Shown: piece by piece, positions 4,895 to 50,094 of the stretch
How positions within the stretch are numbered: the stretch's first letter is position 1
Layout: each line of letters starts with the position of its first letter
IMG/VR virus record: IMGVR_UViG_2529292998_000004
Location: 1-50,094 of that record
Direction: 5' to 3' (one strand)
Length of the DNA stretch: 50,094 nt
Source of the DNA: a virus
Lineage: Duplodnaviria; Heunggongvirae; Uroviricota; Caudoviricetes
Position numbers and translations under genes: made by a program
The notes under the pieces: generated by a model
Seen by the model: the letters and a program-made list of their open reading frames with translations, nothing else
What the model was told of the DNA's origin: nothing
The model's database searches: none

Positions 4895-4903
4895 ATTCCC
4901 CCC

Positions 4904-4932: not shown

Positions 4933-4958
4933 GTCATAACACTGTGTTACCTGGCTAA

Positions 4959-31840: not shown

Positions 31841-32028
31841 AACTGAATCATTTCTCGTTTCTTCTTCTCCGGCTCCGGCATCTCCACTTCCTGCCCGGCG
31901 TCCAGAAATACCTGCTGACAGAGTCCGGGGTTAGCATCCAGCACCTTTTCGGTGACGCCCTGCGTCGTGCCGTAGTACCGGAAACAGAGCGAATCCACGG
32001 TGTCGCCTTCCAGTGCCTTCACTTTCAT
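31828..32028 (-). CDS. P2 gpX-like tail protein X (LysM-like)
   Basis: MKVKALEGDTVDSLCFRYYGTTQGVTEKVLDANPGL.. resembles P2 X. Confidence 0.6.
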   Translation of the reverse strand: MKVKALEGDTVDSLCFRYYGTTQGVTEKVLDANPGLCQQVFLDAGQEVEMPEPEKKKREMIQLWGE

Positions 32029-32531: not shown

Positions 32532-32623
32532 TCCTGAAAAAATCGGGCGGTGGGTGCGCGGTGTAAACGGTCACGGAGTCAAACCGGAACACCGCGCACG
32601 CCGCCCGCTGACGGGGTCAGTCG

Positions 32624-33424: not shown

Positions 33425-33469
33425 TTGTTCTCTCCGTTACAGGCGGGCATGATGCCCGCCGTGAGTTGA

Positions 33470-34522: not shown

Positions 34523-34545
34523 AAAAAATTTGCTCCTTTGTCTTA

Positions 34546-35382: not shown

Positions 35383-35536
35383 AGTTTTTGCCCCTCTGAC
35401 TGGTTCTTCAGTCATGATGGCAAAGCGTAACAGGCTGATACAAAGGGCTTTTGTTGTAAGAAAACGGCCAGAACAGGGGGTTAAGGAGAACGGTTTCGCG
35501 CGCGGGTAATCTTCCTGTAATTACTCAGGGGGAGCA

Positions 35537-37288
35537 ATGATTCAGGACGCTTTTGTGCGCCAGCGTGCGCGGCAACTTTACTGGCAGGGTTATCCGCCCG
35601 CAGAAATATCACGTCTGATGGGAATAAACCCGAACACGATTTATGCGTGGAAAAAACGCGACCAGTGGGATGAAACGCCACCCGTGCAGCGTGTCACGCA
35701 GTCCATCGATGCGCGCCTCATCCAGCTTACTGAAAAACAGAATAAAACAGGCGGTGACTTTAAGGAAATAGACCTGCTGACCCGGCAGCTTAAAAAAATG
35801 CATGATGGCCAGCCGGATGCGACGGCCACAGGAAAGAAAGGTCGGGCGAAAAAACTCAAAAATCATTTCACGCCGGAACAGATTGCCGCACTGCGGGAAA
35901 AAATCATCAGCAGGCTGGAGTGGCATCAGCGGGGCTGGTTTGACTCCCTGACCCTTTGCAGGGAAGCCGGGATACGTAACAGGATGATCCTGAAATCCCG
36001 ACAGATTGGCGCGACCTGGTATTTTGCACAGGAAGCACTGCTGATGGCGCTGCGTGACGATGTGGCGCAACCTTACCAGCGTAACCAGATTTTTTTGTCT
36101 GCGTCGCGTCGTCAGGCGTTCCAGTTTAAAAGCATTATTCAGAAGGCCGCGGCTGAAGTTGATGTGGAGCTGAAAGGGGGCGATAAAATCATCCTCTCCA
36201 ACGGCGCAGAGCTGCATTTTCTCGGCACTTCTGCTGCGTCGGCGCAGTCCTATACGGGCAATTTTTATTTTGATGAATTTTTCTGGGTCAGTCGCTTTGC
36301 TGAACTGCGCAAGGTGGCTGGCGCTATGGCAACCCTCAGCGGATTGCGGCGCACCTACTTCTCCACGCCATCCACCGAAACGCACGAAGCATACGCCTAC
36401 TGGAACGGCGACCGCTGGAACGAGAAAAAGGCCACGCATAAACGCCAGCGTTTTTCTGTGGACTGGAAAACGCTGCATAACGGGCTTATCTGCCCTGACC
36501 GGACGTGGCGGCAAATTGTCACGCTGGAAGATGTGGTTAATCACGGCTGGAAACACACCGATATCGACGAAATTCGTGATGAAAACACCGAAGACGAGTT
36601 CCTCAATCTCTATATGTGTGAGTTTGTCCGCGAAGGGGAATCGGCATTTAACCTGAATATCCTGATTGGCTGCGGTGTTGACGGATACGACGACTGGAAA
36701 GACTGGAAACCTTTTGCTCCCCGCCCGATGGGGAATCGTCCGGTATGGATTGGGTATGACGCAAACGGCAGCAGTGGCAACGGCGACAGCGGCGCTGTAT
36801 CCGTGGTGGTTCCTCCGGCTGTTCCTGGTGGCCGTTTTCGAACGGTGGAGACGCGACGCGTTCAGGGGCTGGAGTTTGAAGAACAGGCCAGAGTCATTGA
36901 AGAGTTCACGTGTCGCTACAACGTGGAACACATCGGCATTGATGTGACGGGCGGGAACGGGGAGGCTGTTTATCAGATAGTGAAACGGTTTTTCCCTGCC
37001 GCTATTCCGTACACCTTCACGCTGTCATCAAAACGGTCGCTGGTACTGAAAATGCTGCAAATAATGCGTGCCGGGCGGTGGGAATACGATCGCGCCGAAC
37101 GCGAGCTGGTCGCGGCCTTTAACGCCGTGCGTAAGGTGAAAACACCGGGCGGCTTTATCACTTACGAAACGGACCGTGCGAGGGGGATCAGCCACGGCGA
37201 CCTTGCGTGGGCAACCATGCTTGCTGTCATTAACGAACCGATTGGCGGCGAAGGAGAAAACGAGCGTTTCACGGTTATGGAGTTCTGA
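35537..37288 (+). CDS. P2 gpP-like terminase large subunit (ATPase)
   Basis: 583 aa, divergent from O; ATGA overlap with Q start. Confidence 0.9.
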   Translation: MIQDAFVRQRARQLYWQGYPPAEISRLMGINPNTIYAWKKRDQWDETPPVQRVTQSIDARLIQLTEKQNKTGGDFKEIDLLTRQLKKMHDGQPDATATGKKGRAKKLKNHFTPEQIAALREKIISRLEWHQRGWFDSLTLCREAGIRNRMILKSRQIGATWYFAQEALLMALRDDVAQPYQRNQIFLSASRRQAFQFKSIIQKAAAEVDVELKGGDKIILSNGAELHFLGTSAASAQSYTGNFYFDEFFWVSRFAELRKVAGAMATLSGLRRTYFSTPSTETHEAYAYWNGDRWNEKKATHKRQRFSVDWKTLHNGLICPDRTWRQIVTLEDVVNHGWKHTDIDEIRDENTEDEFLNLYMCEFVREGESAFNLNILIGCGVDGYDDWKDWKPFAPRPMGNRPVWIGYDANGSSGNGDSGAVSVVVPPAVPGGRFRTVETRRVQGLEFEEQARVIEEFTCRYNVEHIGIDVTGGNGEAVYQIVKRFFPAAIPYTFTLSSKRSLVLKMLQIMRAGRWEYDRAERELVAAFNAVRKVKTPGGFITYETDRARGISHGDLAWATMLAVINEPIGGEGENERFTVMEF

Positions 37289-38334
37289 TGAGCAGAAAAA
37301 ATAAAAAAGTGCGCATGAGTTCACGCATTGATCTCGCTGATGCGCTCAGGAAAGAATCATCGCTCAGTGCATTCACATTTGATGGTCCTTATCGCCTGAC
37401 CGGGCATGACCTGCTGGACAATATGTACTGTGCTGATAACGGGCGGTGGTATGAAACCCCGGTGGACTGGTACGGTCTGGCAAGAGCTGCCCGGCAAACG
37501 TCCTGGCATCAGTCTGCGCTTTACTTTAAGCGCAATGTATTACTCGGTTGCTACATCCCGCACCCGTTGCTTTCCCGGCAGGATTTCTCGGCGCTGGCGC
37601 TGGACTGGTTTGTGTTCGGTAACGCATTCCTTGAGCTTCGAAGCAATATGCTCGGCGAACCGCTTAAATTACGGCACGCCCTGGCGAAATACATGCGACG
37701 CGGAAGCGATCTTGAATCATGGTGGTATGTGCAGGATGGCAAGGACGCGTTTCAGTTTCGCCCTGGCAAAGTGTGCCACCTGATGAATCCTGACATTAAC
37801 CAGGAAATCTACGGCATGCCGGAATATCTCGGCGCATTACTCTCGGCCAGCCTGTCTCATTCGGCGGACATGTTCAGAAAACTGTATTACGACAATGGAT
37901 CCCACGCCGGGTGCATCATCTACATCGGTGCAGCGCAGGTAAACCGCGAAAGCATGGACTCCCTGAAAGAAACGCTACAGGGGGCACGTGGTGGTGGTGC
38001 GTTTAAAAACGTGCTCATTCATGCGCCTAACGGGGGCAAAGAGGGGGTGCAAATTTTGCCGTTCCAGCAGATCACCGCAAAGGATGAGTTCATGAATGTT
38101 AAGGCGGCATCCCGTGATGATGTGCTGGCTGCGCACCGCGTTCCGCCGCAACTGATGGGGGCGATGCCGGGCGAAAAAAGTGCGTTTGGTGATGTGGAGA
38201 AGGCCGCGCGGGTTTACGCAATTAACGAGCTGATGCCCGTCATGGAGGCCATGAAGCACATCAATGACTGGCTTGGCGAAGAGGTGATCCGCTTTAACCC
38301 TTACGCACTGTTAGACACCCTGCCCACATCCTGA
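37288..38334 (+). CDS. P2 gpQ-like portal protein
   Basis: 348 aa, downstream of P, size and position as P2 Q. Confidence 0.9.
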   Translation: MSRKNKKVRMSSRIDLADALRKESSLSAFTFDGPYRLTGHDLLDNMYCADNGRWYETPVDWYGLARAARQTSWHQSALYFKRNVLLGCYIPHPLLSRQDFSALALDWFVFGNAFLELRSNMLGEPLKLRHALAKYMRRGSDLESWWYVQDGKDAFQFRPGKVCHLMNPDINQEIYGMPEYLGALLSASLSHSADMFRKLYYDNGSHAGCIIYIGAAQVNRESMDSLKETLQGARGGGAFKNVLIHAPNGGKEGVQILPFQQITAKDEFMNVKAASRDDVLAAHRVPPQLMGAMPGEKSAFGDVEKAARVYAINELMPVMEAMKHINDWLGEEVIRFNPYALLDTLPTS

Positions 38335-38370
38335 CGCGCTTCGCTTGTCTGCTGCTTCGCCGGGGCATAA

Positions 38371-38393
38371 AAAATTTATGCCCCGACTCTCCA
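38371..38393. other. Perfect stem-loop GGGGCATAAA/TTTATGCCCC downstream of portal gene
   Basis: 10 bp inverted repeat, no adjacent U-run on either strand. Confidence 0.3.
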
Positions 38394-38758
38394 GCTCCTG
38401 TATCAGTCAGATAATTTCACGATGCTTTCCTGCTGATTGCCATCATTGACAGTCAGACTCTTACACAATCCCACCGCGTTGACTGCATGTTCTCGCCGCC
38501 TCAGTGCGATTTTGACGGCCTTATCTTCCACTCCATCAAATCAAAAGCCCTCACGTCGTTTTCACGCTCAGCGTGAGAAATACAGCCATTCTGTTGTGTC
38601 GCTGCGACATCGTTCAGGGGATGCTATTTACCCCCTGAAACGCGGGCTGTTCCCCCGTCACCTGCGCGCAGAAAAAGCGCGTTTTTTTGTGCACGCACGG
38701 ATCCTTGACGGATCCAGCCGCCATGCGGGCCGGAAGGGTAAAAAGTCGTTCAAAAAAA

Positions 38759-38788
38759 TTGTGCAAATTTGTGCACTTTTGTGCAAAC
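38759..38788. repeat. Three tandem 10-bp repeats TTGTGCA(A/C)NN
   Basis: TTGTGCAAAT TTGTGCACTT TTGTGCAAAC, helical phasing; lies in the interval where the P2-type cos is expected. Confidence 0.6.
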
Positions 38789-38808
38789 AAAAAGCGCCCC
38801 TGAGGCGC
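38787..38808 (-). terminator. Rho-independent terminator ending the three-gene variable-locus operon
   Basis: Hairpin GCGCCTCAGGGGCGC followed by TTTTTGTTT on the minus strand, 38 bp after the stop of 38846..39109. Confidence 0.5.
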
Positions 38809-38845
38809 TTTAGTGTTTTATAGGTTGTGTATATTTGCTGGGTCC

Positions 38846-39109
38846 TTATCCTGCTGTGCTTTCAACTGATGAGGGGAACAAAATCTTTTCATCAAACCCT
38901 GCATTCATATCATGGACAGCAACACACCAATCCATTGACGAACGATTATCAAGAGCCTCCATGATTTCATCCATGCGGCGTAGGTCATACAGGTAAATGC
39001 TTTTATCGCCAATGGTGTAAAAACCAATTTTTTTCGGTGATGGACAGCGATCAAGAACGTCCTGTAATTCGTTCAACCATGCCCGTTCTTTTTTTGTCAA
39101 AGTTGCCAT
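38846..39109 (-). CDS. Hypothetical protein (87 aa), third gene of variable-locus operon
   Basis: ATG 4 nt after upstream stop, RBS AAGGAGAG inside upstream gene end. Confidence 0.6.
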   Translation of the reverse strand: MATLTKKERAWLNELQDVLDRCPSPKKIGFYTIGDKSIYLYDLRRMDEIMEALDNRSSMDWCVAVHDMNAGFDEKILFPSSVESTAG

Positions 39110-39110
39110 A

Positions 39111-39602
39111 TCACTCTCCTTTGATGCGAATACCAGTGGTACTCATTATCCTGATTTCCCAGAGCACACGAGGAACACCACCGTTTCCGACTGGATCGCG
39201 TTTACTCCGCAGGGCGACGCTTGATTCCGCCCAGCTTTTTCTTGGAGGAAGCGCTTTCACACGAACAAAACCAGCTGCGCGAAGAGATGCTCCTGATTCA
39301 TCTGCCCGGGTGTACGTAATACAACGTTGATAACCCATAGCTTTTGCTGCCCGCCAGACAGCACCATAAAGCGCGCTGTTAGCGTTGCGTTCTCCTGTGG
39401 TACATGTGCGATTTACTTCAAGCGTTAATCCATCATCCAAATGTCGTGCAACAGGTCGACCGGCTGTCGCCACACCTATCAATTCTCCGGCATCATTTCT
39501 CAGACCAATGCTGAATTTATGCCCCACCGGGGGTTTATTGTGTCGGTGATGTCTGGATATAAACGCCTTCGCAACACGAAGAGTAACCGGTGAAATTTGC
39601 AT
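39111..39602 (-). CDS. Hypothetical protein (163 aa), possibly GNAT-like fold; second gene of variable-locus operon
   Basis: Start MQISPVTL.. 3 nt after upstream stop with same AAGGAGAG coupling sequence; C-terminal ..ESGASLRAAGFVRV resembles GNAT motif B (inference only). Confidence 0.55.
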   Translation of the reverse strand: MQISPVTLRVAKAFISRHHRHNKPPVGHKFSIGLRNDAGELIGVATAGRPVARHLDDGLTLEVNRTCTTGERNANSALYGAVWRAAKAMGYQRCITYTRADESGASLRAAGFVRVKALPPRKSWAESSVALRSKRDPVGNGGVPRVLWEIRIMSTTGIRIKGE

Positions 39603-39604
39603 TC

Positions 39605-40180
39605 TCACTCTCCTTTGATGCCAATGTTTACAGACTGGCAAGCCTCTTTGAGCACCCAGTCAACAGCGTCTTTCCATGCTCCGGTTTCGACTGGCGGATT
39701 CTCACGCTTTACCTGTTCATAGAAACGCACCGCTCTAACCAGTCCATCTGACGGTTTTGCCTGTAGTGCAGCCTGAGCTATGCGGTATGCCTGGAGCATA
39801 CGGGCGTCGTTGGCTTTTTTGCGGTTGATGTTGGCTATGTCCGGCTGTGCGTTTGTGTCGAAATACTCGCTCAGTGGCAGGGTGACAACCACATCCACCT
39901 CCTGTGGCGTGATGCCTGATTTGACCAGCGCGTGATGAATGGCAATGACATTCACATCGCTGTACTGGTATTGCGTGTCAGTCGTCTGGACAAAGCGATC
40001 GCTGACCGGATCAAAACCATAGCGCACGCCATCAAGCATGTAGTTCGCGGGCTGCGTGCCACCGAACGGCGCAGACCATTCCGACTTGAAGCTGTTCGGG
40101 CTGATGGCGTTGCGGCGTTCGCCGTTCTCAGTCCATGCCAGCTTGGTGTTGGTGGAGCCGTCATCGATACAAATTTTCAT
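39605..40180 (-). CDS. ParM/StbA-like actin-fold ATPase N-terminal domain protein (191 aa, truncated relative to ParM)
   Basis: MKICIDDGSTNTKLAW...ISPNSFK.EW...FG.....Y.L.G..Y.FDP.S...V.TT....QYSDVNV.A.HHAL..SG....EVD.V.TLPL.EY.D.N.QP...NI.RKKAN closely tracks the N-terminal ~140 aa of plasmid R1 ParM as remembered; remainder unrelated. Confidence 0.6.
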   Translation of the reverse strand: MKICIDDGSTNTKLAWTENGERRNAISPNSFKSEWSAPFGGTQPANYMLDGVRYGFDPVSDRFVQTTDTQYQYSDVNVIAIHHALVKSGITPQEVDVVVTLPLSEYFDTNAQPDIANINRKKANDARMLQAYRIAQAALQAKPSDGLVRAVRFYEQVKRENPPVETGAWKDAVDWVLKEACQSVNIGIKGE

Positions 40181-40211
40181 GTCGCTTTTCCTTATGTTGA
40201 TTAATTAATCG

Positions 40212-40320
40212 TTTACGGGATTCTGAAATCCCGTTTTTGCCTGTTTTATGCGCGCTTCATATATCGCGGCGCGTTTTTTGCTCATTTACGGGATTTGTGA
40301 ATCCCGTTTCTGTCTGTTTT
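40212..40320. repeat. Two ~36-bp direct repeats, each containing a hairpin (ACGGGATT..AATCCCGT), flanking the stop codon of gene A
   Basis: TTTACGGGATTCTGAAATCCCGTTTTTGCCTGTTTT at 40212..40247 and TTTACGGGATTTGTGAATCCCGTTTCTGTCTGTTTT at 40285..40320. Confidence 0.6.
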
Positions 40321-43079
40321 TTGTTTCCACTGGTCAGGCCACCCCGCAGCAGGTCTGCTTTGCGGCGGGCGCGTTCAGTGGTTTCACTGATTCTCTGTGC
40401 GTGCTCTGCGTCGCGGATGGCGCGCAGCATGTCAGAAAGCACGGTAACGGGTGTTTTCATGGTGTTCTGGTCTTGCTGAAGTGTGGATGCCAGGCGTGCG
40501 GCGGCTTCGGGGTCTGATGCCCTCAGCTGTTCCAGATAGCTGGCGACCGGGTTATGGCGGATCTCCGTACTGCTTACGCCGTGGTTACGGCTCAGGCGCT
40601 GCCAGAGCTGCGTGATCCGGCTGTCCGGTCGGGTATCCGGTTTGCGTACAATTTCAAATCCCTGCGGTGCAATGATGCTGCCGTCAACGTACAGACTGCC
40701 GCCCCGTAACAGGTGCTGCATCTGCTGTTCACCGATATGCAGGCCGAGAGATTCGGCAGATTCCCGCCATTCTTTAGCGAGTAATTCGTGGTTATCAGGC
40801 AAAGGCCGCTGCTGTTTGCGGCTCTGTGTCCAGCTCTGCATTTCATCACTGCTGTTTTTTGCCTGTTTGTCACGAAGCGAACGCATCAGCGCCCGGCGTT
40901 CGTGCCGTTTCAGTGAGCGCATCCATTCGTTCACGTCAACGCCGTCAGGAAGCTGCGGCCACGGTGCTGGCCGTTCTTCCGGCTGTTCTGTCCCGTTGTT
41001 GTCCGTTTCCTGTACACGGGGACAGTTATTGCCACGAGTCCAAGGGGCGGCAGGGCCGCCCTGAAGGTCAAAACCATTTTCGTGGGCGTTGTCTTCTGGT
41101 TCTGGTTTACGTCTTACCAACTTCCAGTTATCCGGATGCGTGCACACACGGGAGGATTCCCCGATGAGTGGTGACCAGATCCCGTAAATCTGTACGCTCT
41201 GTTCGCCGTAATCGTTCAGCTCATCTGCGAGGTCGTAGGCGGTGCGAATCAGGTAGTCCTTGCGTGGAACAAGCGCGCCACCCTGTTTTTCAATGTAGGT
41301 GGCAAAACACCCGGCATCGGCGGCAGCGAGTACCGCATCCATTGCATCATCTTTCAGCCGTTGCGGGCCTTCCGGATTGCGTGCCATCTGGCTGGCAAGG
41401 CGGCGCAGTTCACGCCACACCTGACGGGAGGGGATGCCAAAGAACTGGAACTGACGGACCCGGTGAAGGCGCGCCCAGCCGATGGCGCGCTCCACGCTCT
41501 CGGCCATTGATTTTCCGGTTTCGTGGTCAACGCGTGGCTTGCCCGTTTTCGGGTCGATGCCATCCACGGCGCGGCTGTCCAGGTTCTTTCCGATGTAGGT
41601 GGCGATGTAGCTGGTTGGTGTGCCTTTTGAGCCGTCGACATACTCCGCCTTAAAACGCGGAGTTATGTCATCGCCCAGCTCGTGGCGGTCCTCCTGAATG
41701 GCAATATCGCAGACGTGGGACACGATGGTTTCAATCTCGTCCGGATGTGCAAAGACCATCATATGCCAGTGCACAGTGCCGTCATGGTGAGGCTCCACCG
41801 TGCGGATGCCATACCAGCGCAGGCCGTCGCGGTTCAGTTTTTTGCGGACCGCCGCAAAAAACGTGTTAACCAGGTAATCGCTAGAGTCGCGCATGGTGGC
41901 CCCGTTCCATTTGGGGTTCGGATGACCGTTCTCCGTTGTTGCGTGGTATTTTGACGGGCAGGTAACGGTCAGAAACACCGCTCTGTCGCTACGGGCTTCG
42001 GCCAGAAGTTCCAGTCCCTTCATGGTGGCCATCATTTCTGCCTTACGGTGAACCGGGTTACTTACTCCCGCGTAATACACTGTCTCGAGATCAATCGTGA
42101 ACCCGTCTTCATTTTCCAGCATGAAACTTTTCAGGAAATCGCGTGTTTTCTCGCGCTGTGCGCGAAACTCGCTTAACGCGTCCTGGCTCAGATAGGGCGA
42201 TGTTTTTCTGGAAACCAGACAGGCGGCGCGGAGTTGTTCTTCCCGCCACTCGCAACGTAACAGCCACAGTTTGCGTTTCCACCATTCCGCACAGGTCAGG
42301 CGAAGGATTGCGCCCGGCAGCAGTTCTGTGTCCGGTTCGTTCCTCCGGTCTTTGTCTGTTGTCAGTGCGTCATAATGCGGAGGCATGGCGTGCAAGTGTA
42401 ACGCCATGCGGGCTAGCATCTGATACGCCTTCAGCGTTACATCCATGGTCAGCTCGCCATCAGTCGCGCCAAAACCATCGCAGAGTTTTTCGAAGGTGCT
42501 GCTGAACATCGCCGCCGTCATGGTGGCCAGCGTCTGTATCTGGTGTTTGTTGAGTTGCGGCAGGTAAAGCAAATCGTCCAGGCGTTCGCGTCCGGCAAGG
42601 GACCGATAACCCGGTGTCAGCCAACGGCTGTCGGTGCGGTCCAGACGTACGAATATTTTGCGCAGGGTTCCGCGCGCGTAGCGTTCAGCCTGCCAGCTCT
42701 TTTTGCCTTTCTGGCGATCGGCTTCCTGTTTTTTGCGCAGGAAGGAGAGGTGGCGAATAAGCGGATCGCGCAGATAGGACGGCAGCAGGCGCAGCGAGGC
42801 CATGGCTTCATCCACCGCGCCGCGTGCCTGTTTTCTGGCGTCTCCTGCCAGTGTGATGGTTTTGTCCTGTTTTTCCTGTGCGTCCAGGTTTTTATTAATC
42901 AGGTTGCCCAGCGGCGTTGCGGAGAACGCCGCATCAGCCATTTCCTGGCGGCGCTCGTTCTCTGCCCGGTAGGCATCCAGCCAGGAGGAAAGCGCGGATT
43001 CAGGTGCGGGGATCCCCGTTCCTTCACGCCCCACTGCGTGGCGCGGTTGTTGCCAGTCCCTGATGTACTCTGCCGTCAT
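40257..43079 (-). CDS. P2 gpA-like replication initiation endonuclease (HUH rolling-circle Rep), 940 aa
   Basis: HUH motif (..GTVHWHMMVFAH..) and paired active-site tyrosines (..SYIATYIGKN..). Confidence 0.8.
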   Translation of the reverse strand: MTAEYIRDWQQPRHAVGREGTGIPAPESALSSWLDAYRAENERRQEMADAAFSATPLGNLINKNLDAQEKQDKTITLAGDARKQARGAVDEAMASLRLLPSYLRDPLIRHLSFLRKKQEADRQKGKKSWQAERYARGTLRKIFVRLDRTDSRWLTPGYRSLAGRERLDDLLYLPQLNKHQIQTLATMTAAMFSSTFEKLCDGFGATDGELTMDVTLKAYQMLARMALHLHAMPPHYDALTTDKDRRNEPDTELLPGAILRLTCAEWWKRKLWLLRCEWREEQLRAACLVSRKTSPYLSQDALSEFRAQREKTRDFLKSFMLENEDGFTIDLETVYYAGVSNPVHRKAEMMATMKGLELLAEARSDRAVFLTVTCPSKYHATTENGHPNPKWNGATMRDSSDYLVNTFFAAVRKKLNRDGLRWYGIRTVEPHHDGTVHWHMMVFAHPDEIETIVSHVCDIAIQEDRHELGDDITPRFKAEYVDGSKGTPTSYIATYIGKNLDSRAVDGIDPKTGKPRVDHETGKSMAESVERAIGWARLHRVRQFQFFGIPSRQVWRELRRLASQMARNPEGPQRLKDDAMDAVLAAADAGCFATYIEKQGGALVPRKDYLIRTAYDLADELNDYGEQSVQIYGIWSPLIGESSRVCTHPDNWKLVRRKPEPEDNAHENGFDLQGGPAAPWTRGNNCPRVQETDNNGTEQPEERPAPWPQLPDGVDVNEWMRSLKRHERRALMRSLRDKQAKNSSDEMQSWTQSRKQQRPLPDNHELLAKEWRESAESLGLHIGEQQMQHLLRGGSLYVDGSIIAPQGFEIVRKPDTRPDSRITQLWQRLSRNHGVSSTEIRHNPVASYLEQLRASDPEAAARLASTLQQDQNTMKTPVTVLSDMLRAIRDAEHAQRISETTERARRKADLLRGGLTSGNKKQTETGFTNPVNEQKTRRDI

Positions 43080-43085
43080 AGTGAT

Positions 43086-43451
43086 TTACTTCGTCATGCC
43101 ATTCAGGGTGTCGCGGCAGACTGTAGCCAGCCGCTGAATTTCCAGCACGGTGTCTTCTGTGTCGGCATGGCGATGTGTGATGCGGATGCTGTCGGCAATC
43201 ACATCGACGATTGCAGAGGATGGGCGCTGGTAAATGCCAATAACGGACGGGGTGCCACCTTCAATGCGGTAAAGCCTGTAATTTCCCTCGTGGCTGTCAA
43301 TCATGTAGCGACCATCAATAACAATCTTTCCGTCAGCGAGCTGCGGTACAGGCAGGGATTTCAGGTACATGTCATAACGATCACGCACGCGAGCGGCAAG
43401 ATCACGTTCTGTGTTGAGCAGGTATTCAAGAAAGTCGTTGGCGAGAATCAT
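43086..43451 (-). CDS. Hypothetical protein (121 aa) immediately upstream of A
   Basis: ORF with stop 7 nt before A start. Confidence 0.5.
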   Translation of the reverse strand: MILANDFLEYLLNTERDLAARVRDRYDMYLKSLPVPQLADGKIVIDGRYMIDSHEGNYRLYRIEGGTPSVIGIYQRPSSAIVDVIADSIRITHRHADTEDTVLEIQRLATVCRDTLNGMTK

Positions 43452-43523
43452 TGCGGCAATCCTCTTGTTACAGATGTGCGAAGGCCTCCCGCCGCAAGGT
43501 GCAGGAAAGGCCCGGAACAGGAA

Positions 43524-43754
43524 TTAATGGAGTTTGTTTTGCTGCTGGAAGAGTTGTTGCAGCTCGCGCAGATCATCCGCCAGATAGCTGAAAACAGAGG
43601 CGGAATAGATGTTCGATAGCGCGTGGCTGCGCTCATGCAGCATATTGATGTGCATGATTTGCGCGACGCGTGATGCGCGGAAAAGTCTACGGTTGATTTC
43701 AGTCTGGATGTGACGACGCTCCGCGATAGCGCGGCGCTGTTTGCGGTTTGCCAT
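43524..43754 (-). CDS. Hypothetical small basic protein (76 aa)
   Basis: ORF MANRKQRRAIAERRHIQTEINRR..; overlapping 206 aa ORF in another frame judged spurious. Confidence 0.4.
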   Translation of the reverse strand: MANRKQRRAIAERRHIQTEINRRLFRASRVAQIMHINMLHERSHALSNIYSASVFSYLADDLRELQQLFQQQNKLH

Positions 43755-44090
43755 GGTGTGGCCCCTTGTGTAGTAAGTTGTGAAAACTCACCATCCAGAG
43801 CTGCGAAACTGTGGGTGGCGAGACGTACGAGGTTCGCAGTACCGGCTACACAAGAACCCGGCCCGACCGAAGTCGGCCCCGTACGCCCCGCCATAATTCT
43901 GACGCGAAAAAAACGTGGCAATACAGTACGCACAAAAAAACCGCTGGCGCGGTTGTGCGCTTGTGTAGTCAGCAGGCTGCGAAACCCGGCACCCGTTTTG
44001 TGAGGTGCAGCGGAAATGTAACCTGACTGATTGCGGCATGGCAAGCGGTTTTTTTGTGAGAACGGCATACTAAAAAATCCTGATACTGCT

Positions 44091-44115
44091 CCGGCCAGCG
44101 GTTTTCACTGGCCGG
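44091..44115. other. Stem-loop CCGGCCAGCGG..CACTGGCCGG just downstream of SPFH gene (weak terminator)
   Basis: 10 bp inverted repeat; U-run not adjacent on minus strand. Confidence 0.35.
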
Positions 44116-44121
44116 GTTTAA

Positions 44122-44952
44122 TTACTTCACCGGAACAAACGGAACAGCGGTGTTACTGGTCATGTATTGCGGTAGCGTGCCGTTCCATTTGTTAATCGCT
44201 TCCAGCTCCATAACGCCGGGATTCTGGCGCAGAGCTTCGCCGCGTAAACGAATGGCGTCGGCTTCAGCCTGGGCTTTTGTGCGAATGGCATCGGCTTGTC
44301 CGGCAGCTTCTGCGCGCAGCATGTTGGCTTCAGCTTCGCGTTGCTTGACTTCCTGTTCACGTTGCAGGGTTTTCTGGTTTGCCGTGACTTTGGCGTTAAT
44401 GCTGTCGATAACGGTTGGCGGATATTCCGGTTTACCGACATAAGAGAGGCTCATGACCTGAATACCGATGGGGGTCATTTCTGCCTGAATATCTTTAAGT
44501 GCTGAATCCAGCAGTTCAGACTTACCACCGTCGATAAACTTATCGGTGGTCATTTTGCTGGCCAGTCGGTTGAGTGCATCGGCGATCTTCTGGCGCAGGT
44601 CAGTGTCGGTAATGTCGTCCACGCCTTTGCGGTAGGTCTGAAACACCGTGGTAACTTTGGATGGATCAACTTTGTAGGCCACGCCGATGTGATAGCCGAT
44701 GGTTGTGCCGTCACTCATCTGAAAGCTGAACGGCTCATCGTAGGTCTTCATTTGTTTGAAGGTCGGGAAGATGTAAACCTCGGTATTCCAGCCAGTCCAG
44801 TAGCGACCAACGCCAACCACTTCGCCAACGCCTTTGTCGTCGCCCAGCTTGTTGACTTTGATGCCCATATTACCTGGCTCAACGCGATCGCAGCCAACCA
44901 GCAGGATGGCGGCAAAAAGCGGGAGAATCTGAAAGAGTCTGAATTTCTTCAT
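44122..44952 (-). CDS. SPFH/band-7 (prohibitin-like) domain lipoprotein
   Basis: 276 aa; lipoprotein signal MKKFRLFQILPLFAAILLVGC; SPFH-like core; C-terminal coiled-coil rich in Ala/Glu/Gln. Confidence 0.75.
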   Translation of the reverse strand: MKKFRLFQILPLFAAILLVGCDRVEPGNMGIKVNKLGDDKGVGEVVGVGRYWTGWNTEVYIFPTFKQMKTYDEPFSFQMSDGTTIGYHIGVAYKVDPSKVTTVFQTYRKGVDDITDTDLRQKIADALNRLASKMTTDKFIDGGKSELLDSALKDIQAEMTPIGIQVMSLSYVGKPEYPPTVIDSINAKVTANQKTLQREQEVKQREAEANMLRAEAAGQADAIRTKAQAEADAIRLRGEALRQNPGVMELEAINKWNGTLPQYMTSNTAVPFVPVK

Positions 44953-45152
44953 TGTTTAATTTCCTTGATGTACTTACTGAAAAGGCGAACAACGCCTGCC
45001 GGGTACAGCATGGCAATGAAAATGCCCAGCAATACCAGGAAGGAGCTGTCTGATGAAATCATTCGGGGGAGTACCCCTACATACAGAATGAGAGAGACGA
45101 GGACGCATACCAGCGCCCATGCATATGCACGAAACCATGTCTTGTTGTTCAT
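44949..45152 (-). CDS. Small two-TM membrane protein (67 aa) translationally coupled to SPFH gene
   Basis: Start MNNKTWFRAYAWALVCVLVSLILYVGV..; ATGA overlap with SPFH start. Confidence 0.5.
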   Translation of the reverse strand: MNNKTWFRAYAWALVCVLVSLILYVGVLPRMISSDSSFLVLLGIFIAMLYPAGVVRLFSKYIKEIKQ

Positions 45153-45162
45153 GTTGCGGCCC

Positions 45163-45459
45163 TTACTGGTTAAGGAAAAAATCGAAAACCTTGTCAATGC
45201 GTTGCAGCAGCTCTTGCTGTATTGCTTCCGGCGTTTCCGGTTCGCCTGGCGCCTCCAACGTCGCGCAGAAATCAGCGATTTCATGATGGAGTGTCAGGCG
45301 AATGGCAGGGGCCGTGGTTCTGGCGTGCTCCAACTCATCCAGCAGTGCCAACACCACTGACGGTTGTAAGCTCACGCGAGATGGTAGTGATTCATGGGGG
45401 GGTATTCTTTGCACGGCAGTCGCCAGTTCGCGTAGTTCCTGGTGGTTGATGATGCTCAT
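45163..45459 (-). CDS. Hypothetical protein (98 aa)
   Basis: ORF in early operon, overlaps neighbours by 4 nt. Confidence 0.45.
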   Translation of the reverse strand: MSIINHQELRELATAVQRIPPHESLPSRVSLQPSVVLALLDELEHARTTAPAIRLTLHHEIADFCATLEAPGEPETPEAIQQELLQRIDKVFDFFLNQ

Positions 45460-45707
45460 GCTCTGGCTTCCTTCAGTAACTGGTTAAACATATTGGTAAG
45501 TGGATTGCCGCACCCGAACGGCATCGGGTTTACCTGGTAAGAGAAGCGACCACCTGTTTTGCGCTCTTTTCTTATGACTGAACCGCTACGCCAGAGTCGG
45601 CGTAACTCCGCATTAATAGCTGTGGTTGGGGTATTCAGTGCTGCGGCGATTTCTCCACCGCTACACCCCGGATTGGCGGCGATATAGTCCAGAATGGTCA
45701 TCTGCAT
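45456..45707 (-). CDS. Putative winged-helix DNA-binding protein (83 aa)
   Basis: MQMTILDYIAANPGCSGGEIAAALNTPTTAINAELRRLWRSG.. helix-turn-helix-like pattern. Confidence 0.5.
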   Translation of the reverse strand: MQMTILDYIAANPGCSGGEIAAALNTPTTAINAELRRLWRSGSVIRKERKTGGRFSYQVNPMPFGCGNPLTNMFNQLLKEARA

Positions 45708-45904
45708 GACTCCTGTACCTGTCGGATAAGGTTCACCCGCACCACGTTGGTGGCGCAGAAGTAAGTGCCGTCAGTGAGGTAGATGTGGTGTGCATCCTTT
45801 TCTGAACGGTGTTTGTCGATTGTGGTAATCAGGCGTTCGTCGACTTCGTATTCACGTCCTCTGGAGGTAAAACGAACGACAGGAAAGTGCTTAATTGCCA
45901 TTGC
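45698..45904 (-). CDS. Hypothetical protein (about 68 aa from internal Met)
   Basis: ORF in early operon. Confidence 0.4.
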   Translation of the reverse strand, partial: AMAIKHFPVVRFTSRGREYEVDERLITTIDKHRSEKDAHHIYLTDGTYFCATNVVRVNLIRQVQESCR

Positions 45905-46208
45905 GCCCACTGTTCTGTTTCTGGCGACGGATGCGGGATAGCTGGATTTCCAGCTCTTCAATGTGGTCGTGCAACTCGTCTATTTCGGCGAAAAGCGAAT
46001 CAAGGGTTGATGAGAGTTCCGTTAACAGGGCCTTTGCCGCCAGTGCAACAGTAAACGTGCCGATGTCGCGTTCCGGGTCAATTTCACTAACAAGTGTTCT
46101 GGTTAGTTCAAGAGCGACGGGGAGCGCCTCTTCCAGTTTGCAATCCTGGAGATGAGCAAGAATAGTTAATGCGTCGCATTGAATTTTGTCTTCTTTATTT
46201 TGTTTCAT
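45891..46208 (-). CDS. Hypothetical coiled-coil protein (105 aa)
   Basis: ORF in early operon. Confidence 0.45.
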   Translation of the reverse strand: MKQNKEDKIQCDALTILAHLQDCKLEEALPVALELTRTLVSEIDPERDIGTFTVALAAKALLTELSSTLDSLFAEIDELHDHIEELEIQLSRIRRQKQNSGRNGN

Positions 46209-46408
46209 CGTTGCCGCCTTATTTGAATGTACAAAGCCCTCCGCGAGTGCGGATTGTTTTCATGTTTTCTTATTTAATCGTGTGTTTTATTTGTGCTGTT
46301 ATTCTTCAGTGAAAAAACGCTCAATCTTTTTTACTGAATGAATAATTCGCACAATGCCAATTGCGCAGACCACTGAAATAATCAGAACAATCCATGACAT
46401 AAATATAC

Positions 46409-46651
46409 TCATGCGATATTCCCCAGCTTATACGGTTCAATATGTTCTCCGCATTCTGCGGCACAGATCAGCTCGGAAAGTTCGTTAAGTGCATCCAGAT
46501 CATCAGCGTAAAAAGCCACGTCATACAGACTCCGGATTGCCCTGGTCAATGAGTCACGGGCTGCACGTTCAGCATGAACGCCTGATGCGCTTAAGCGAAA
46601 ATAAAAACGCTCAAGTGCTTTGTTGATGAGTGTTTTATATTCTTTGTCCAT
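46409..46651 (-). CDS. Hypothetical protein (80 aa)
   Basis: ORF in early operon. Confidence 0.45.
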   Translation of the reverse strand: MDKEYKTLINKALERFYFRLSASGVHAERAARDSLTRAIRSLYDVAFYADDLDALNELSELICAAECGEHIEPYKLGNIA

Positions 46652-46662
46652 TGCAACACCCT

Positions 46663-46941
46663 TTAATCTGCTTTCTGGATTTCAGCTTCTGAATCCATGC
46701 AAATAATTTCGATATAGGGTTCATTGCCATTAACCTGACGTGCCTTTTCAGCTTCGCTAATGATTTCGCGTACAGTCTGGTACGGAAGTTCTACGGTCAG
46801 GCGCGTGCCGTTCAGATAAACGTAAGTAGCTGCATTTTTTTCGGATGGAACAACTCCGTCAATGGCTGATGCGCGTAATAACAGTTCACCGCGAAAATCA
46901 ACAAAACGGATAAATACACCTTGTGCATGCTCTTTGGTCAT
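46663..46941 (-). CDS. Hypothetical protein (92 aa from internal Met)
   Basis: ORF in early operon. Confidence 0.45.
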   Translation of the reverse strand: MTKEHAQGVFIRFVDFRGELLLRASAIDGVVPSEKNAATYVYLNGTRLTVELPYQTVREIISEAEKARQVNGNEPYIEIICMDSEAEIQKAD

Positions 46942-46951
46942 AAAGCACCTG

Positions 46952-47302
46952 TTATAAATCAGCCTGTTTAATAAAACTTTGCCCACGAAGCAGACGATCA
47001 ACCGTGCGAAGTGCTTCGTACAATGTGAAATCCTGCCCGAAGTGATTGTCGCCGCAGTTCAATGCAAAAATGCGGCTTCCGGTAAACGGATTGCGTTGGC
47101 ATTTGTGGACCACGATTCCAGCTTTCTCAATCAACCAAGTGTGCTCGCCGATTTGTTTTACGGGATGTCCATCAGGTGTGGCGTGTGTTTCGCTCAGGCT
47201 GTAGCGAGAGTTGCTACGTGATGCACTGGTAGCGAAACGGTTAGCATGGCGTTCCGCACCGTTGCGGAAGCGCTGCTGTGAAGAATTGCGCTGTAGTTTC
47301 AT
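46952..47302 (-). CDS. Hypothetical protein (116 aa)
   Basis: ORF in early operon. Confidence 0.45.
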   Translation of the reverse strand: MKLQRNSSQQRFRNGAERHANRFATSASRSNSRYSLSETHATPDGHPVKQIGEHTWLIEKAGIVVHKCQRNPFTGSRIFALNCGDNHFGQDFTLYEALRTVDRLLRGQSFIKQADL

Positions 47303-47439
47303 ATTAAAACTCTGTACCTTCGGTAAGGTGTACTCGTGTCACCTTGTATTGATTTGTGGTATTTTTTTTGTGTGTCTAGGACTTGGACTGGCCGGTTCAG
47401 GTCCTGGCTTATGTTTAATTAAATTGTTAAGAGGTTTTC

Positions 47440-47631
47440 ATGTCAGAAGATAAAAAAGTTGTTAATTTGTTGAGTGAACTTAGTGCTGCTCTGGATAACA
47501 TTAACCCTCCCAGGGTAAAAACGACGGGTGATAAAGACGCATTAAACACAGAGATTCATATATTACTGGCGTTAGTAACTGACAAAATTCAGCGTAAATA
47601 CCCACCTGTCACACAACTGGTTGATTTTTAA
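47440..47631 (+). CDS. Hypothetical small protein (63 aa), AT-rich, convergent with 47638..48060
   Basis: ORF on plus strand in AT-rich island; AGAGG-like RBS upstream. Confidence 0.4.
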   Translation: MSEDKKVVNLLSELSAALDNINPPRVKTTGDKDALNTEIHILLALVTDKIQRKYPPVTQLVDF

Positions 47632-47637
47632 TTTGAT

Positions 47638-48060
47638 TTATGCTGGGCTGCTCCCGGCATCTTCTAGCTGCCATAATGTCTCGTCACCTGATAGAGCAAA
47701 ACGAAATGAGTGAAGTATATCCTCCCGAGAGAAGCTCACGGCTACAGCTGCGGGAAAGTCAAATATAATCCCACCTTCATTTTTAAAACGATTACGCAAT
47801 TGATAGGCTATCGGTTTGATTTGTGCAGGAAGAGTATCTATATCTCTTCCATTGACAACAGAATCTTTGTTTTCAAGTACTGATTTAGCGATTAGATATA
47901 GATGCCAGTAACTGGTTACAATTGTTACTCCTGTGATGTGTCGTAAATTAATTGCAATTCGTCCGTTATTATGTTTTTCCGCAAGGTATTTCAGGTTATC
48001 AATTAATGCTTGGTCATTTTTTGAAATAGTTATTGTGAAATCTGACGTGTTTGTTTTCAT
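47638..48060 (-). CDS. Hypothetical protein (140 aa from internal Met), AT-rich
   Basis: Start MKTNTSDFTITIS.. placed just after stop of the Cox-like gene; markedly lower GC than flanks. Confidence 0.5.
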   Translation of the reverse strand: MKTNTSDFTITISKNDQALIDNLKYLAEKHNNGRIAINLRHITGVTIVTSYWHLYLIAKSVLENKDSVVNGRDIDTLPAQIKPIAYQLRNRFKNEGGIIFDFPAAVAVSFSREDILHSFRFALSGDETLWQLEDAGSSPA

Positions 48061-48064
48061 ACGA

Positions 48065-48586
48065 TTAGTTGCCTCTGTTGTTTCTGAGTTGGTCCAGTTT
48101 TGAGCTTCTGCCTGTATAAACTCGCTTACCGTTAATGGTCTGGCAGTCTTCTTTATTAGCTGGAGAGAACTTCCTTTTCTGGCGGTCATACGTCCAGTAA
48201 CTTTTCCAGTTGTGCCATTCTGGGGGCTCGTGCTCTGGTAGCTCATCAGCCAACTTGTCCCACTCTTTGGCGTTAAACCACCATACTCCGTCTGAGTTTT
48301 CATCTTCCGGGTTTGTGCGCGTCTTGTGTCCCGGCATTTGACCGCGATGAATGGCTACGCGCAGTGCAGATTTTGTTAGCCCAATATATGCCGCGCCTCT
48401 TTCCAGAGAGCAAAGCCCGGCGATCGGACCATCCAGCCGCAAAGTCGCTCCTTTTTTGTAGGAACGCTTTTTCTTGTTTTCTTCGTGTTCGTCGTCGTTG
48501 GCGGCATCAATGGATCCGCTGAGTGCGTCACTTTCCTGAAGTGGTTGGTGGTCAGATAACTCTTTATCGGCAATGAAGTCCCGCAT
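48065..48586 (-). CDS. Cox/AlpA-like HTH regulator with long extensions (173 aa), first gene of early operon
   Basis: GAGGA RBS; central ..LERGAAYIGLTKSALRVAIHRGQMPG.. resembles the HTH of P2 Cox-type excisionase/regulators; divergent from repressor gene. Confidence 0.5.
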   Translation of the reverse strand: MRDFIADKELSDHQPLQESDALSGSIDAANDDEHEENKKKRSYKKGATLRLDGPIAGLCSLERGAAYIGLTKSALRVAIHRGQMPGHKTRTNPEDENSDGVWWFNAKEWDKLADELPEHEPPEWHNWKSYWTYDRQKRKFSPANKEDCQTINGKRVYTGRSSKLDQLRNNRGN

Positions 48587-48645
48587 TTGTTATCCTCTTG
48601 CGTTGGTGCGCTTGTCGCGCCTTGTGATGGTTTGTTTTGGCTTGT

Positions 48646-48669
48646 AAAGATAACCAAAAGGTTATCTTT
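48646..48669. promoter_or_regulatory. Operator-like palindrome AAAGATAACC-AAAA-GGTTATCTTT in immunity region
   Basis: Perfect 10-bp inverted repeat between divergent Cox-like and repressor genes; third half-site GGTTATCTT at 48693..48701. Confidence 0.5.
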
Positions 48670-48690
48670 GTGCGAGAGGTTAATACTCAA

Positions 48691-49032
48691 ATGGTTATCT
48701 TGTCAATAGACTACGCAAAAAAGTTACGTCAGATACGTAAGGCGGAAGGGTTAACACAAAAGCAGTTTGCGGATATTACTGGGTTGTCTTTGGCAACCAT
48801 AAGGAATTACGAATCGGGGCAAAAGAACGCTAGAGCAAAAATCGTTGAGGCGGTTCTGCAAGTCGATCGCTTTGAAAAATACATGCTGTGGCTAATAAAA
48901 GATAAGACGCTACCTGTCGCCGGGCAGATTGCTCCGGCTCTCTCTCTTGATGGATCTATTCAGTCGGAGGGCGATCAGGTTTCAATCGGTATTACCCAAA
49001 AATCACCCCGATCAGGCCGCAATGTTGGCTGA
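48691..49032 (+). CDS. Immunity repressor, XRE-family HTH (P2 C / 186 CI position); alternative start 48637
   Basis: ..YAKKLRQIRKAEGLTQKQFADITGLSLATIRNYESG.. canonical XRE HTH; directly upstream of integrase, same strand. Confidence 0.7.
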   Translation: MVILSIDYAKKLRQIRKAEGLTQKQFADITGLSLATIRNYESGQKNARAKIVEAVLQVDRFEKYMLWLIKDKTLPVAGQIAPALSLDGSIQSEGDQVSIGITQKSPRSGRNVG

Positions 49033-49101
49033 CTCTACACATTGAGCGAATTACATATCGCAAGGAGTGTTTAGTTAATTTATCCGTTGGAGGGGCTAAT
49101 C

Positions 49102-50094
49102 ATGTCGATTAAGCAACTCAAAGACGGACGTTATCAGGTCGATGTCAGACCGCAGGGGGCGGAAGGAAAGCGGATTCGAAAAATCTTTGCCCTGAAATCA
49201 AAGGCTCAGGAGTTTGAGAAGTATGTGTTACAGAACTTTCATGACAAGCCATGGCAGGCTAAGCCAGCTGATCAGCGGCGATTATCAGAGCTGCTTGATG
49301 CGTGGTGGATGCTTGATGGGCGTAATCAGGCTTACGGGGATAGCTACAGGGTTAGGCTAGGGAAGGTTGTTCGTGAAATGGGAGATCCTCGCGCCAGTCA
49401 GATGACGCGAAAATTTATGCTTGAATATCGGTCAGAGAAATTACAGGCCGGATTAATGCCGTCCAGTATTAATCGTGACTTATGCGTACTGTCTACCATG
49501 TTCACGGTGCTGATTGAAGCTGAGGTCTTTCACAACGCGAACCCTGTACGCGGTATACGAAAACTGAAAGTTCAGAACACAGAGATGGCCTTTCTTTCTG
49601 ATGATGAGATTGAACGGCTTCTTGAGCGACTGGAGGGTGATGCGCGTCGTGTTGCCATTCTGTGTCTTTCTACTGGTGCCCGATGGAGTGAAGCATCGGA
49701 ACTACGTGGAGAGCATATCGTTGGCAACCGGGTGACGTTCTTTAACACCAAAAACGGAAAATCCCGTTCGGTTCCTGTGGCGGATTCGGTCGTGCCTCTG
49801 ATTAAAACCCGTCGAACGGGGTTATTGTATCAGGTTGATTATCTGAAGTTCCGGGAGATTCTTCAGGAGGTGAAACCGGATTTGCCGAAGGGGCAGGCTA
49901 CGCATGTCATGCGTCATACATTTGCCACACACTTTATGATGAATGGCGGAAATATTGTTACGTTGCAACGAATCCTGGGGCACGCAACGATTCAGCAAAC
50001 AATGACGTACGCTCATTTTTCGCCGGACTTTTTACTGGACGCGATCAACTTTAATCCGCTGGCTGAAAGTGTCCATAAACTGTCCATCGATTAG
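49102..50094 (+). CDS. int: Tyrosine integrase, P2 Int family
   Basis: Start MSIKQLKDGRYQVDVRP.GAEGKRIRK.F..KS.A..FEKY.L.. and C-terminal ..LCLSTGARW.EA..L......TF..TK..K.R.VP......GQATH..RH.FATHFM.NGG.I.TLQRILGH...QTM.YAHF.P.. match P2 integrase as remembered; GGAGGGG RBS. Confidence 0.9.
   Translation: MSIKQLKDGRYQVDVRPQGAEGKRIRKIFALKSKAQEFEKYVLQNFHDKPWQAKPADQRRLSELLDAWWMLDGRNQAYGDSYRVRLGKVVREMGDPRASQMTRKFMLEYRSEKLQAGLMPSSINRDLCVLSTMFTVLIEAEVFHNANPVRGIRKLKVQNTEMAFLSDDEIERLLERLEGDARRVAILCLSTGARWSEASELRGEHIVGNRVTFFNTKNGKSRSVPVADSVVPLIKTRRTGLLYQVDYLKFREILQEVKPDLPKGQATHVMRHTFATHFMMNGGNIVTLQRILGHATIQQTMTYAHFSPDFLLDAINFNPLAESVHKLSID

Follow-up and report, generated by a model that had tools for sequence, protein, structure and literature searches.

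Near the right end of the stretch of viral DNA analysed here (positions 1 to 50,094 of the IMG/VR virus record IMGVR_UViG_2529292998_000004, from a member of the Caudoviricetes; all 50,094 nt are referred to as the window) lies an AT-rich island in which two open reading frames (ORFs), of 140 and 63 amino acids (aa) and hence called ORF140 and ORF63, run towards each other. It is well supported that this island is a 745-bp accessory cassette, swapped into a variable slot between cox and the DUF4761 gene of a P88-like prophage, and sequence comparison gives equally good support to the view that it carries two genuine protein-coding genes, which represent two undescribed families and travel together. 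As to what the pair might do, the reading towards which we tentatively lean is that ORF140 would be an effector of early lytic growth, and that ORF63 would be its cognate antagonist, expressed in the lysogen. The cassette and its parts are the following.

47320 to 48064: the AT-rich exchangeable cassette of 745 bp in the cox-DUF4761 slot, delimited by alignment with Escherichia coli EC361 and phage P88 and by GC content.
47638 to 48060, minus strand: ORF140, 140 aa, the forward gene, part of the early (cox) operon and founding member of an uncharacterised family of proteins of 131-149 aa.
47440 to 47631, plus strand: ORF63, a small acidic protein of 63 aa, reverse-oriented, the conserved partner of ORF140, with homologues that also lie tail to tail with theirs.
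47355 to 47365, plus strand: TGTGGTATTTT, a TRTGn-type extended -10-like element ahead of ORF63, a putative promoter by motif conservation.
47376 to 47407, plus strand: a 14-bp stem-loop between this motif and the ribosome-binding site of ORF63, a predicted 5'-proximal hairpin of the mRNA (minimum free energy -21.9 kcal/mol, z = -2.55).
47429 to 47434, plus strand: the Shine-Dalgarno sequence AAGAGG of ORF63, read from the sequence, 5 nt before the ATG.
47632 to 47659: the tail-to-tail junction with a short stem-loop (47641-47659) in the last codons of ORF140, lacking a U-run on either strand.

The limits of the cassette are sharp. Alignment with EC361 and P88 puts one breakpoint at the stop codon of cox (48065) and the other at about 47319, some 17 nt upstream of the DUF4761 ATG, and between them the base composition changes in the way expected of a moron or accessory cassette. 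Indeed, 47303-48064 has a GC content of 37.8% versus 53.5% for the whole window, and the flanking cox and DUF4761 genes stand at 0.50 each, with 0.43-0.50 across the nearby phage genes. At third codon positions the GC fraction is 0.284 in ORF140 and 0.312 in ORF63, as against 0.534 in cox, 0.496 in DUF4761 and 0.509 in the integrase gene. An earlier, sequence-only reading of this DNA had described an AT-rich island below its flanking genes and proposed that composition be compared quantitatively; the comparison bears it out, since composition is far from uniform and only 0.24% of equal-sized (762-bp) windows are as low. The same reading had proposed a horizontally acquired cargo pair, and here too the evidence agrees, for the slot behaves as moron slots do, being filled or empty at the same site among collinear relatives. 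In phage P88 the cassette is absent and DUF4761 follows cox after 37 bp; in E. coli EC361, which has an identical C repressor and a cox gene 95.6% identical, the slot holds a 68-aa ORF predicted to be a two-helix membrane protein; and two more alternative cargos were found in the same slot of other prophages. Relatives of the pair likewise have a GC content below that of their surroundings. The possibility that the island belongs to a heteroimmune C/cox block was considered and rejected, because EC361 keeps the same C and cox and differs in its cargo, and we therefore regard the island as cargo of a variable slot, not as part of the immunity core.

ORF140 abuts cox, as the sequence-only reading had noticed. 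The cox stop codon TAA occupies 48067-48065 and the ORF140 start codon 48060-48058, so that the minus strand reads TAA-TCGT-ATG with a 4-nt spacer, and ORF140 ends in a TAA at 47640-47638. There is no room for a promoter of its own after cox, and a -35/-10 scan flagged no consensus promoter on this strand. ORF140 is translationally coupled to cox and read with the repressor-controlled early lytic operon, and since that operon is under the control of C, it should be silent in the lysogen. The protein is soluble and mildly acidic (grand average of hydropathy, GRAVY, -0.19), with no hydrophobic segment, and the residues conserved in its family include D16, T49, Y51 and R120. As a single chain it was modelled with AlphaFold2 (AF2), from the single sequence and then from an 11-sequence alignment; the single-sequence model was poor and the alignment-based one mediocre (mean predicted local distance difference test score, pLDDT, 60), with an alpha/beta domain predicted. 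Directly upstream of ORF140 homologues in Salmonella prophages, in the same direction and apparently coupled to them, lie strongly hydrophobic mini-ORFs of 37-39 aa, for example MYNLKSLFIDIIAVIAIACLGMVLIAATVKFIASYIF (at 4751-4986 of locus L008; relative loci are labelled L with a number; also in L005, L007, L012, L013 and L014). Mini-ORFs of this kind are absent from the window; their presence before the homologues indicates polycistronic early transcription in these relatives.

ORF63, by comparison, appears to carry expression signals of its own. It runs from an ATG at 47440 to a TAA at 47629-47631, and its family consists of soluble proteins with isoelectric points of 4.5-5.6 and no hydrophobic segment (GRAVY of the ORF63 in the window, -0.20). 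When the upstream regions of the small ORFs are aligned, an invariant TGTGnTA(T/C)nTT is followed by a stem-loop, a Shine-Dalgarno sequence and the ATG, and the stem-loop stands at the same position, with a different sequence, in three other sequence types. All 11 reverse-oriented genes of the related loci have a TGTGNTAYNTT motif 65-74 nt before them, and the rest of these loci is nearly devoid of it, where chance would give about 0.6 matches per 50 kb; we take the motif to fit the TRTGn class of 'extended -10' promoters. The positions of motif and hairpin in the window together predict a transcription start just 5' of the hairpin. Equipped with this promoter-like element of its own, with a stem-loop in the 5' region and with a strong ribosome-binding site, ORF63 should be expressed in the lysogen.

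The motif is not a private possession of the ORF63 family, since it precedes the partners of 60-63 aa and also unrelated reverse genes of 103 and 168 aa. In several Salmonella prophages it sits inside a near-identical promoter cassette of about 110 nt, which is reused before different reverse genes of one phage. This cassette consists of …GCGAACGGCGAGCAGCTTGTGnTATGTT followed by a GC-rich hairpin, contains a GCCGT-N12-ACGGC dyad centred near -38, and precedes unrelated genes of 62, 103 and 168 aa, sometimes twice per prophage. It looks like a portable module of promoter and 5' untranslated region, and it may also serve as a recombination substrate for the shuffling of cassettes. Searches of Rfam with the island and with the promoter cassette gave no match. 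The copies, all on the minus strand, are these.

L005, 6597-6720 and 7805-7925, minus strand: two copies of the ~110-nt promoter cassette.
L007, 5882-6000 and 6938-7060, minus strand: two copies.
L012, 6238-6350, minus strand: one copy.
L013, 5638-5753 and 7069-7180, minus strand: two copies.

A further occurrence of the motif was seen in a second AT-rich island of the window (24956-26150, minimum GC 0.37), between lambdoid Nu1 and Rz. That island holds a basic ORF of 61 aa (25343-25528, plus strand), and on the opposite strand, facing it, another TGTGTTATTTT motif is followed by a hairpin (25632-25580, minus strand) with no obvious ORF behind it, which could represent a small antisense RNA or the promoter of a moron.

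The two genes converge with exactly 6 bases (47632-47637) between their stop codons, just as first noticed from the sequence. The stem-loop at this junction folds no better than shuffled sequences (z about 0), and a terminator scan together with folding found no bidirectional terminator there. Since no terminator separates the genes in the window, the convergent transcripts should overlap. In some relatives (L021 and L010) the small ORF is followed at once by a terminator-like hairpin with a U-run, which falls within the final part of the large gene.

Word-indexed searches recovered only near-identical E. coli copies of the pair. An exhaustive phmmer search of 1.84 billion representatives uncovered relatives of ORF140 at 30-34% identity, and further ones came from a profile search, all of them in Salmonella or E. 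coli; overall, the relatives of the pair lie at 21-40% identity to the proteins of the window, with the ORF63 homologues at 25-40%. Their loci share an order, in which integrase and repressor are followed by an early regulator, of Cox type or another, in some cases by a few small ORFs, and then by the ORF140 homologue (131-149 aa), which an ORF of 60-63 aa on the opposite strand meets tail to tail. The pairing is kept in all eight pairs analysed, and hidden Markov models made from the two alignments pick up the two partners at each such locus. In the seven loci where it was measured, the distance between the stop codons lies between -4 and +6 nt, and for the eighth (L026) a 4-nt overlap follows from the coordinates. 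The genes of a ninth and more distant pair (L021) are separated by 13 nt, and its small ORF is apparently frameshifted. Start sites, ribosome-binding sites and synteny are conserved among the relatives as well. Four subtypes of the large protein match four subtypes of the small one, one to one and with no swapping of partners, and the pairwise identities of the two families correlate with a Pearson r of 0.93, with the caveat that these pairs are not independent of one another. Purifying selection acts on both families, the ratio of nonsynonymous to synonymous substitution rates (dN/dS) being 0.18-0.22 in the large gene and 0.12-0.34 in its small partner, as estimated from pairs with unsaturated dS only. 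The sequence-only reading had allowed for both ORFs lacking conservation, which would have undone its proposal of a cargo pair; diverged homologues of each, evolving at these rates, settle that point in its favour.

Wider scans gave little more. Two scans of genome contigs for a wider distribution gave no match; protein scans of viral contigs found two loci, to which a DNA-pattern scan added two more contigs; a metagenome scan returned near-identical E. coli copies only; and tblastn against phages found three P88-like phages only. The family is rare and confined to prophages of E. coli and Salmonella.

Further insight comes from the shuffling of domains among the relatives. Two N-terminal domains, that of the ORF140 type (A) and a second one (B), are found by themselves or joined to one of two C-terminal domains. 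With the first, domain X of about 85 aa, both A+X and B+X face a homologous reverse gene of 103 aa; with the second, domain Y, which matches phrog_10410, both A+Y and B+Y face a reverse gene of 168 aa that matches phrog_9021. These two families, both of unknown function, are all that Pfam, PHROGs, NCBIfam and PADLOC returned for the related proteins of 103, 168, 225, 234, 259 and 260 aa. ORF140 itself consists of the N-terminal domain only, with no C-terminal extension. In the relatives, then, which reverse partner is present goes with the C-terminal domain of the forward protein, whichever N-terminal domain that protein has; this pattern is expected of cognate effector/antagonist cassettes, and tight linkage would give it as well. 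In searches of the libraries with the two ORFs and their related proteins, a sub-threshold match to DUF1408 (E = 0.02) was disregarded.

Taken at face value, the architecture suggests a working scheme, in which ORF140 would be an accessory effector of early lytic growth, perhaps acting in host takeover or in some other costly activity, and made only when the early promoter fires. ORF63 would be made constitutively in the lysogen and would antagonise ORF140, buffering leaky or premature expression. After induction, strong early transcription would run head-on into ORF63, and because no terminator stands between the genes in the window, it would silence ORF63 and so release ORF140. Timing of expression, antagonism and transcriptional interference are all parts that we infer, and we hold the whole tentatively, since a number of points weigh against it. 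For neither ORF was there a significant match in Pfam, PHROGs, NCBIfam or PADLOC; profile and single-sequence searches of the PDB were empty, and fold searches gave no significant match, so that homology, whether sought by family, from sequence to structure or by fold, lends no support to toxicity, binding or any other activity. The two proteins are alike in being mildly acidic and hence lack the contrast of basic toxin and acidic antitoxin. The generic -35/-10 scan raised no flag at the putative promoter motif ahead of ORF63. Co-divergence of the partners, together with the tracking of C-terminal domains, can be explained by tight physical linkage alone, and the partnership has gaps: the B+Y protein of L014 has no reverse partner, the ORF140-type N-terminal domain stands without an ORF63 homologue in L012, and an unpartnered tandem paralogue is found in L013, from which it follows that the small protein is not obligatory for that domain. 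We consider it unlikely, though worth stating, that the pair exemplifies an unrecognised class of 'face-to-face' effector/antidote cassettes in P2-family phages, with an early-lytic effector opposed tail to tail by a lysogen-expressed antagonist that is switched off head-on upon derepression. In such a class the effector would be an N-terminal domain of the ORF140 type or of type B, alone or with swappable C-terminal domains, the portable module of extended -10 promoter and hairpin would drive the antagonist in the lysogen, and the whole would act as a safety catch on lytic functions, made of protein plus transcriptional interference, or as a kin-directed exclusion device.

The most serious competitor, possible if somewhat doubtful in our view, is that two independent accessory genes are simply held together by linkage, ORF63 being a lysogenic-conversion moron with its own promoter and ORF140 an unrelated early protein (anti-defence, host takeover or similar), so that the tail-to-tail layout would be a mere packing of reverse-oriented morons into an early operon. 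The reuse of one portable promoter cassette before unrelated reverse genes (60-63, 103 and 168 aa) speaks for this, as do the ORF140-type domains of L012 and L013 that lack an ORF63 homologue, and the interval from integrase to primase in P2 has been reported as a lesser hotspot of accessory and defence genes (PMC13586616). What it struggles with is the constancy of the short-form pairs, all eight of which keep the partner at -4 to +6 nt across identities of about 25-40%, and in particular the strict one-to-one subtypes, with which free reassortment in a recombination-prone slot is hard to reconcile. The other extreme, that the ORFs are chance openings in an AT-rich spacer and not genes at all, could appeal to the lack of any curated-family match and to the poor single-sequence AF2 model; it is refuted by the diverged homologues of both proteins with their dN/dS of 0.12-0.34 and by the conserved starts, ribosome-binding sites and synteny, to which the annotation of both genes by PGAP may be added, and we give it virtually no credence.

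A toxin-antitoxin (TA) or abortive-infection defence module, made by the prophage to protect its lysogen from other phages, was what the sequence-only reading had suggested as an example, and the suggestion did not survive well. A small two-gene AT-rich cargo near an immunity region, with strictly conserved pairing and an acidic small partner, would suit such a module, and P2-like prophages are rich in defence cargo (PMC9122126, PMC13586616). Yet PADLOC-DB v2 returned no family for ORF140 or ORF63 at E <= 1, no toxin or antitoxin family matched, and Pfam, NCBIfam, PHROGs and the PDB were equally silent. The genes are convergent and are not co-transcribed as an operon; ORF140, coupled to cox in a repressed operon, should be off in the very lysogen where a defence must be on; and at 140 aa and soluble, ORF140 is not a type I toxin, nor is ORF63, a conserved protein, just an antisense RNA. 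The placement of ORF140 in the lytic operon, with ORF63 under its own element, is thus unlike either a type II TA operon or a lysogen-expressed defence, and we judge this explanation improbable. Less probable again is a function at the level of RNA or transcription, in which the reverse promoter would serve for establishment or as a 'lock', in the manner of phage 186 pE or lambda pRE; running antisense across ORF140 and cox, its transcript would damp leaky transcription of the lytic genes or continue into C and int. ORF63, C and int do lie on the plus strand in that order, with no terminator detected between 47632 and 48690; the annotation of phage 186 has a leftward promoter just after apl; and interference between convergent promoters is established for the 186 switch (pL/pR annotation; PMC5001618). 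However, ORF63 is under purifying selection as a protein, so RNA cannot be the whole story, ORF140 is unlike 186 CII (hhalign probability 0.2%), and the U-run terminator-like hairpins right after the small ORF in L021 and L010 would stop read-through. Untranslated antisense RNA of about 1 kb is moreover prone to Rho termination, and the postulated transcript, being of that kind, would tend to the same fate.

Should the effector/antidote reading prove true, it would bring a new regulatory design, namely an antidote governed by transcription that converges on it from the lytic promoter, and new protein families in the repertoire of phage-host or phage-phage conflict. Should it prove wrong, the locus is still a rare, lineage-restricted and well-delimited accessory cassette with an unusual conserved architecture. 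In either case the pair belongs to a wider set of forward/reverse cassettes that share a promoter-like module, and a 745-bp fragment with two small genes and an 11-nt motif provides a cheap experimental handle on an unexplored part of the early operons of the P2 family.

The setting of the cassette is the immunity and early region of a P88-like prophage of E. coli (genus Xuanwuvirus, family Peduoviridae, the P2 family), which makes up the right end of the window and whose integration site adjoins dmsA. The sequence-only reading had called the neighbouring gene Cox-like and placed the island beside an immunity region, and family searches concur on both counts, with repressor and integrase next to it.

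49087-50094, plus strand: integrase, beyond repressor C at the right end.
48691-49032, plus strand: repressor C, a helix-turn-helix (HTH) protein, between the integrase and the Cox-like gene.
48065 to 48586, minus strand: Cox-like regulator, 173 aa (Pfam Phage_Cox, 3.8e-07; phrog_23196, 3.6e-116), the upstream neighbour of ORF140.
46952 to 47302, minus strand: DUF4761 gene (Pfam DUF4761, 2e-67), the downstream neighbour and the first conserved early gene past the slot; a phrog_3800 gene and then DUF4754 lie beyond it.

Among complete E. coli genomes, 271 of 5,426 (about 5%) carry one chromosomal copy of the 721-base island at an identity of at least 98.8%, and the carriers among the genomes listed belong mostly to the ST131 lineage, with UTI89 among them too. 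The island is also found in three phage records: two are those of vB_EcoM-569R5 and vB_EcoM-705R2, both sequenced phages, and the third is from ST131 and bears the label 'Entero_P88'. The PGAP annotation of at least 270 complete E. coli genomes includes both ORFs, with no description beyond 'hypothetical', and literature searches by protein accession found nothing, as did those by topic on this pair.

Other features of the window deserve a brief mention. Its first 30,600 positions (1-30600) form a lambdoid late region, with a J-type tail fibre, tape measure, Nu1 and A terminase, Rz and endolysin, and the P88-like element accounts for only about 19 kb (30700-50094), comprising spanin, head genes, Q/P, gpA, the early region and int. 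No P2-type tail genes were seen in the window, and the prophage appears to be hybrid or truncated, with the junction between the lambdoid and P88-like parts near 28.7-30.7 kb, around a 627-aa ORF of phrog_143. At 43811-44008 (minus strand) Rfam places a C4 antisense RNA (83 bits) beside isrK (64 bits), the two overlapping the 5' part of a regulator-like ORF of 206 aa (43448-44068, minus strand); this looks like a module of the P1/P7 immI type (C4-controlled, antirepressor-like) within a P88-like early region, and the same pair of RNAs is present in the Salmonella locus L005 (9808-9996). Far to the left, an Rfam IS009 RNA (226 bits; 1378-1576, minus strand) lies within an ORF of 194 aa (1335-1919) and adjoins one of 991 aa (1919-4894). 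The early region of P88 has an annotated 'derepression protein' of 76 aa, possibly with a P4 epsilon-like function, and the region of the window that corresponds to it, around 44949-45284, contains small ORFs of similar size; positions 429-659 of L002 belong to the same comparison.

How, then, does the cassette compare with systems already known? Its nearest relations in habit are phage morons and lysogenic-conversion cassettes, such as those of P2. The Z/fun locus is one of the major hotspots of P2, and tin and old are oriented against the lytic operon. Like tin, old and fun(Z), our cassette is AT-rich, absent from close relatives and housed in a slot with alternative cargos, and its reverse gene, like tin and old, has a promoter-like element of its own and points against the lytic operon. 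P2-like phages have been described as having hotspots for accessory and defence cargo (Rousset et al. 2022, PMC9122126; PMC13586616), with GpA-GpQ as a further major hotspot and the integrase-to-primase interval as a minor one (PMC13586616). The cassette differs from the cargo of the major hotspots in sitting between cox and the first conserved early gene, from the defence cargo of P2 in having no known defence gene, and from autonomous morons in that its ORF140 half is an integral, translationally coupled part of the lytic operon. With regard to the signals of its own that a moron should have, ORF63 shows the extended -10-like motif with no terminator detected, and ORF140 has no promoter-like site.

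A second comparison is with phage 186, where the order apl-cII-pE (and cII/pRE in lambda) likewise puts a gene directly behind Cox/Apl and has a leftward promoter within the early operon. By contrast, ORF140 is not CII-like and has no match to an HTH family, and the reverse promoter of the cassette would lie downstream of ORF140, not upstream, and drive a conserved protein. The orientation in the window would suit a transcript that reads into repressor and int, but relatives have terminator-like hairpins right after the small ORF. The ORF63 family was also compared with Fil and Dhr of phage 186, and no relationship was found.

Toxin-antitoxin systems offer a third set of parallels. Like those of type II, the cassette is a two-gene unit on a mobile element, with conserved pairing and an acidic small partner; unlike their bicistronic autoregulated operons, its genes are convergent with what appear to be separate promoters, the larger gene would be under the control of the prophage repressor, and no known toxin or antitoxin is similar to either protein in fold or family. 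The type I systems txpA/RatA and bsrG/SR4 of Bacillus subtilis prophages have convergent transcripts that overlap at their 3' ends, and in this the cassette, a pair of prophage genes lying tail to tail whose transcripts should overlap in the same way, is alike; it departs from them in that ORF140 is soluble and of 140 aa, not a hydrophobic peptide of less than about 60 aa, and in that the opposing gene encodes a conserved protein. In regulation, the cassette differs from every canonical type of toxin-antitoxin system, and no described counterpart was found in the literature searched. It is in logic that we would place its closest analogy, namely with the pairs of toxin and immunity protein in polymorphic systems (CdiA-CT/CdiI, Rhs-CT/RhsI and colicin/immunity). 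The cassette is set apart from these by having no secretion or delivery context and no known toxin domain, and by a partner on the opposite strand, but in its relatives, as in such systems, an N-terminal domain is combined with alternative C-terminal domains, and the partner follows the C-terminal domain.

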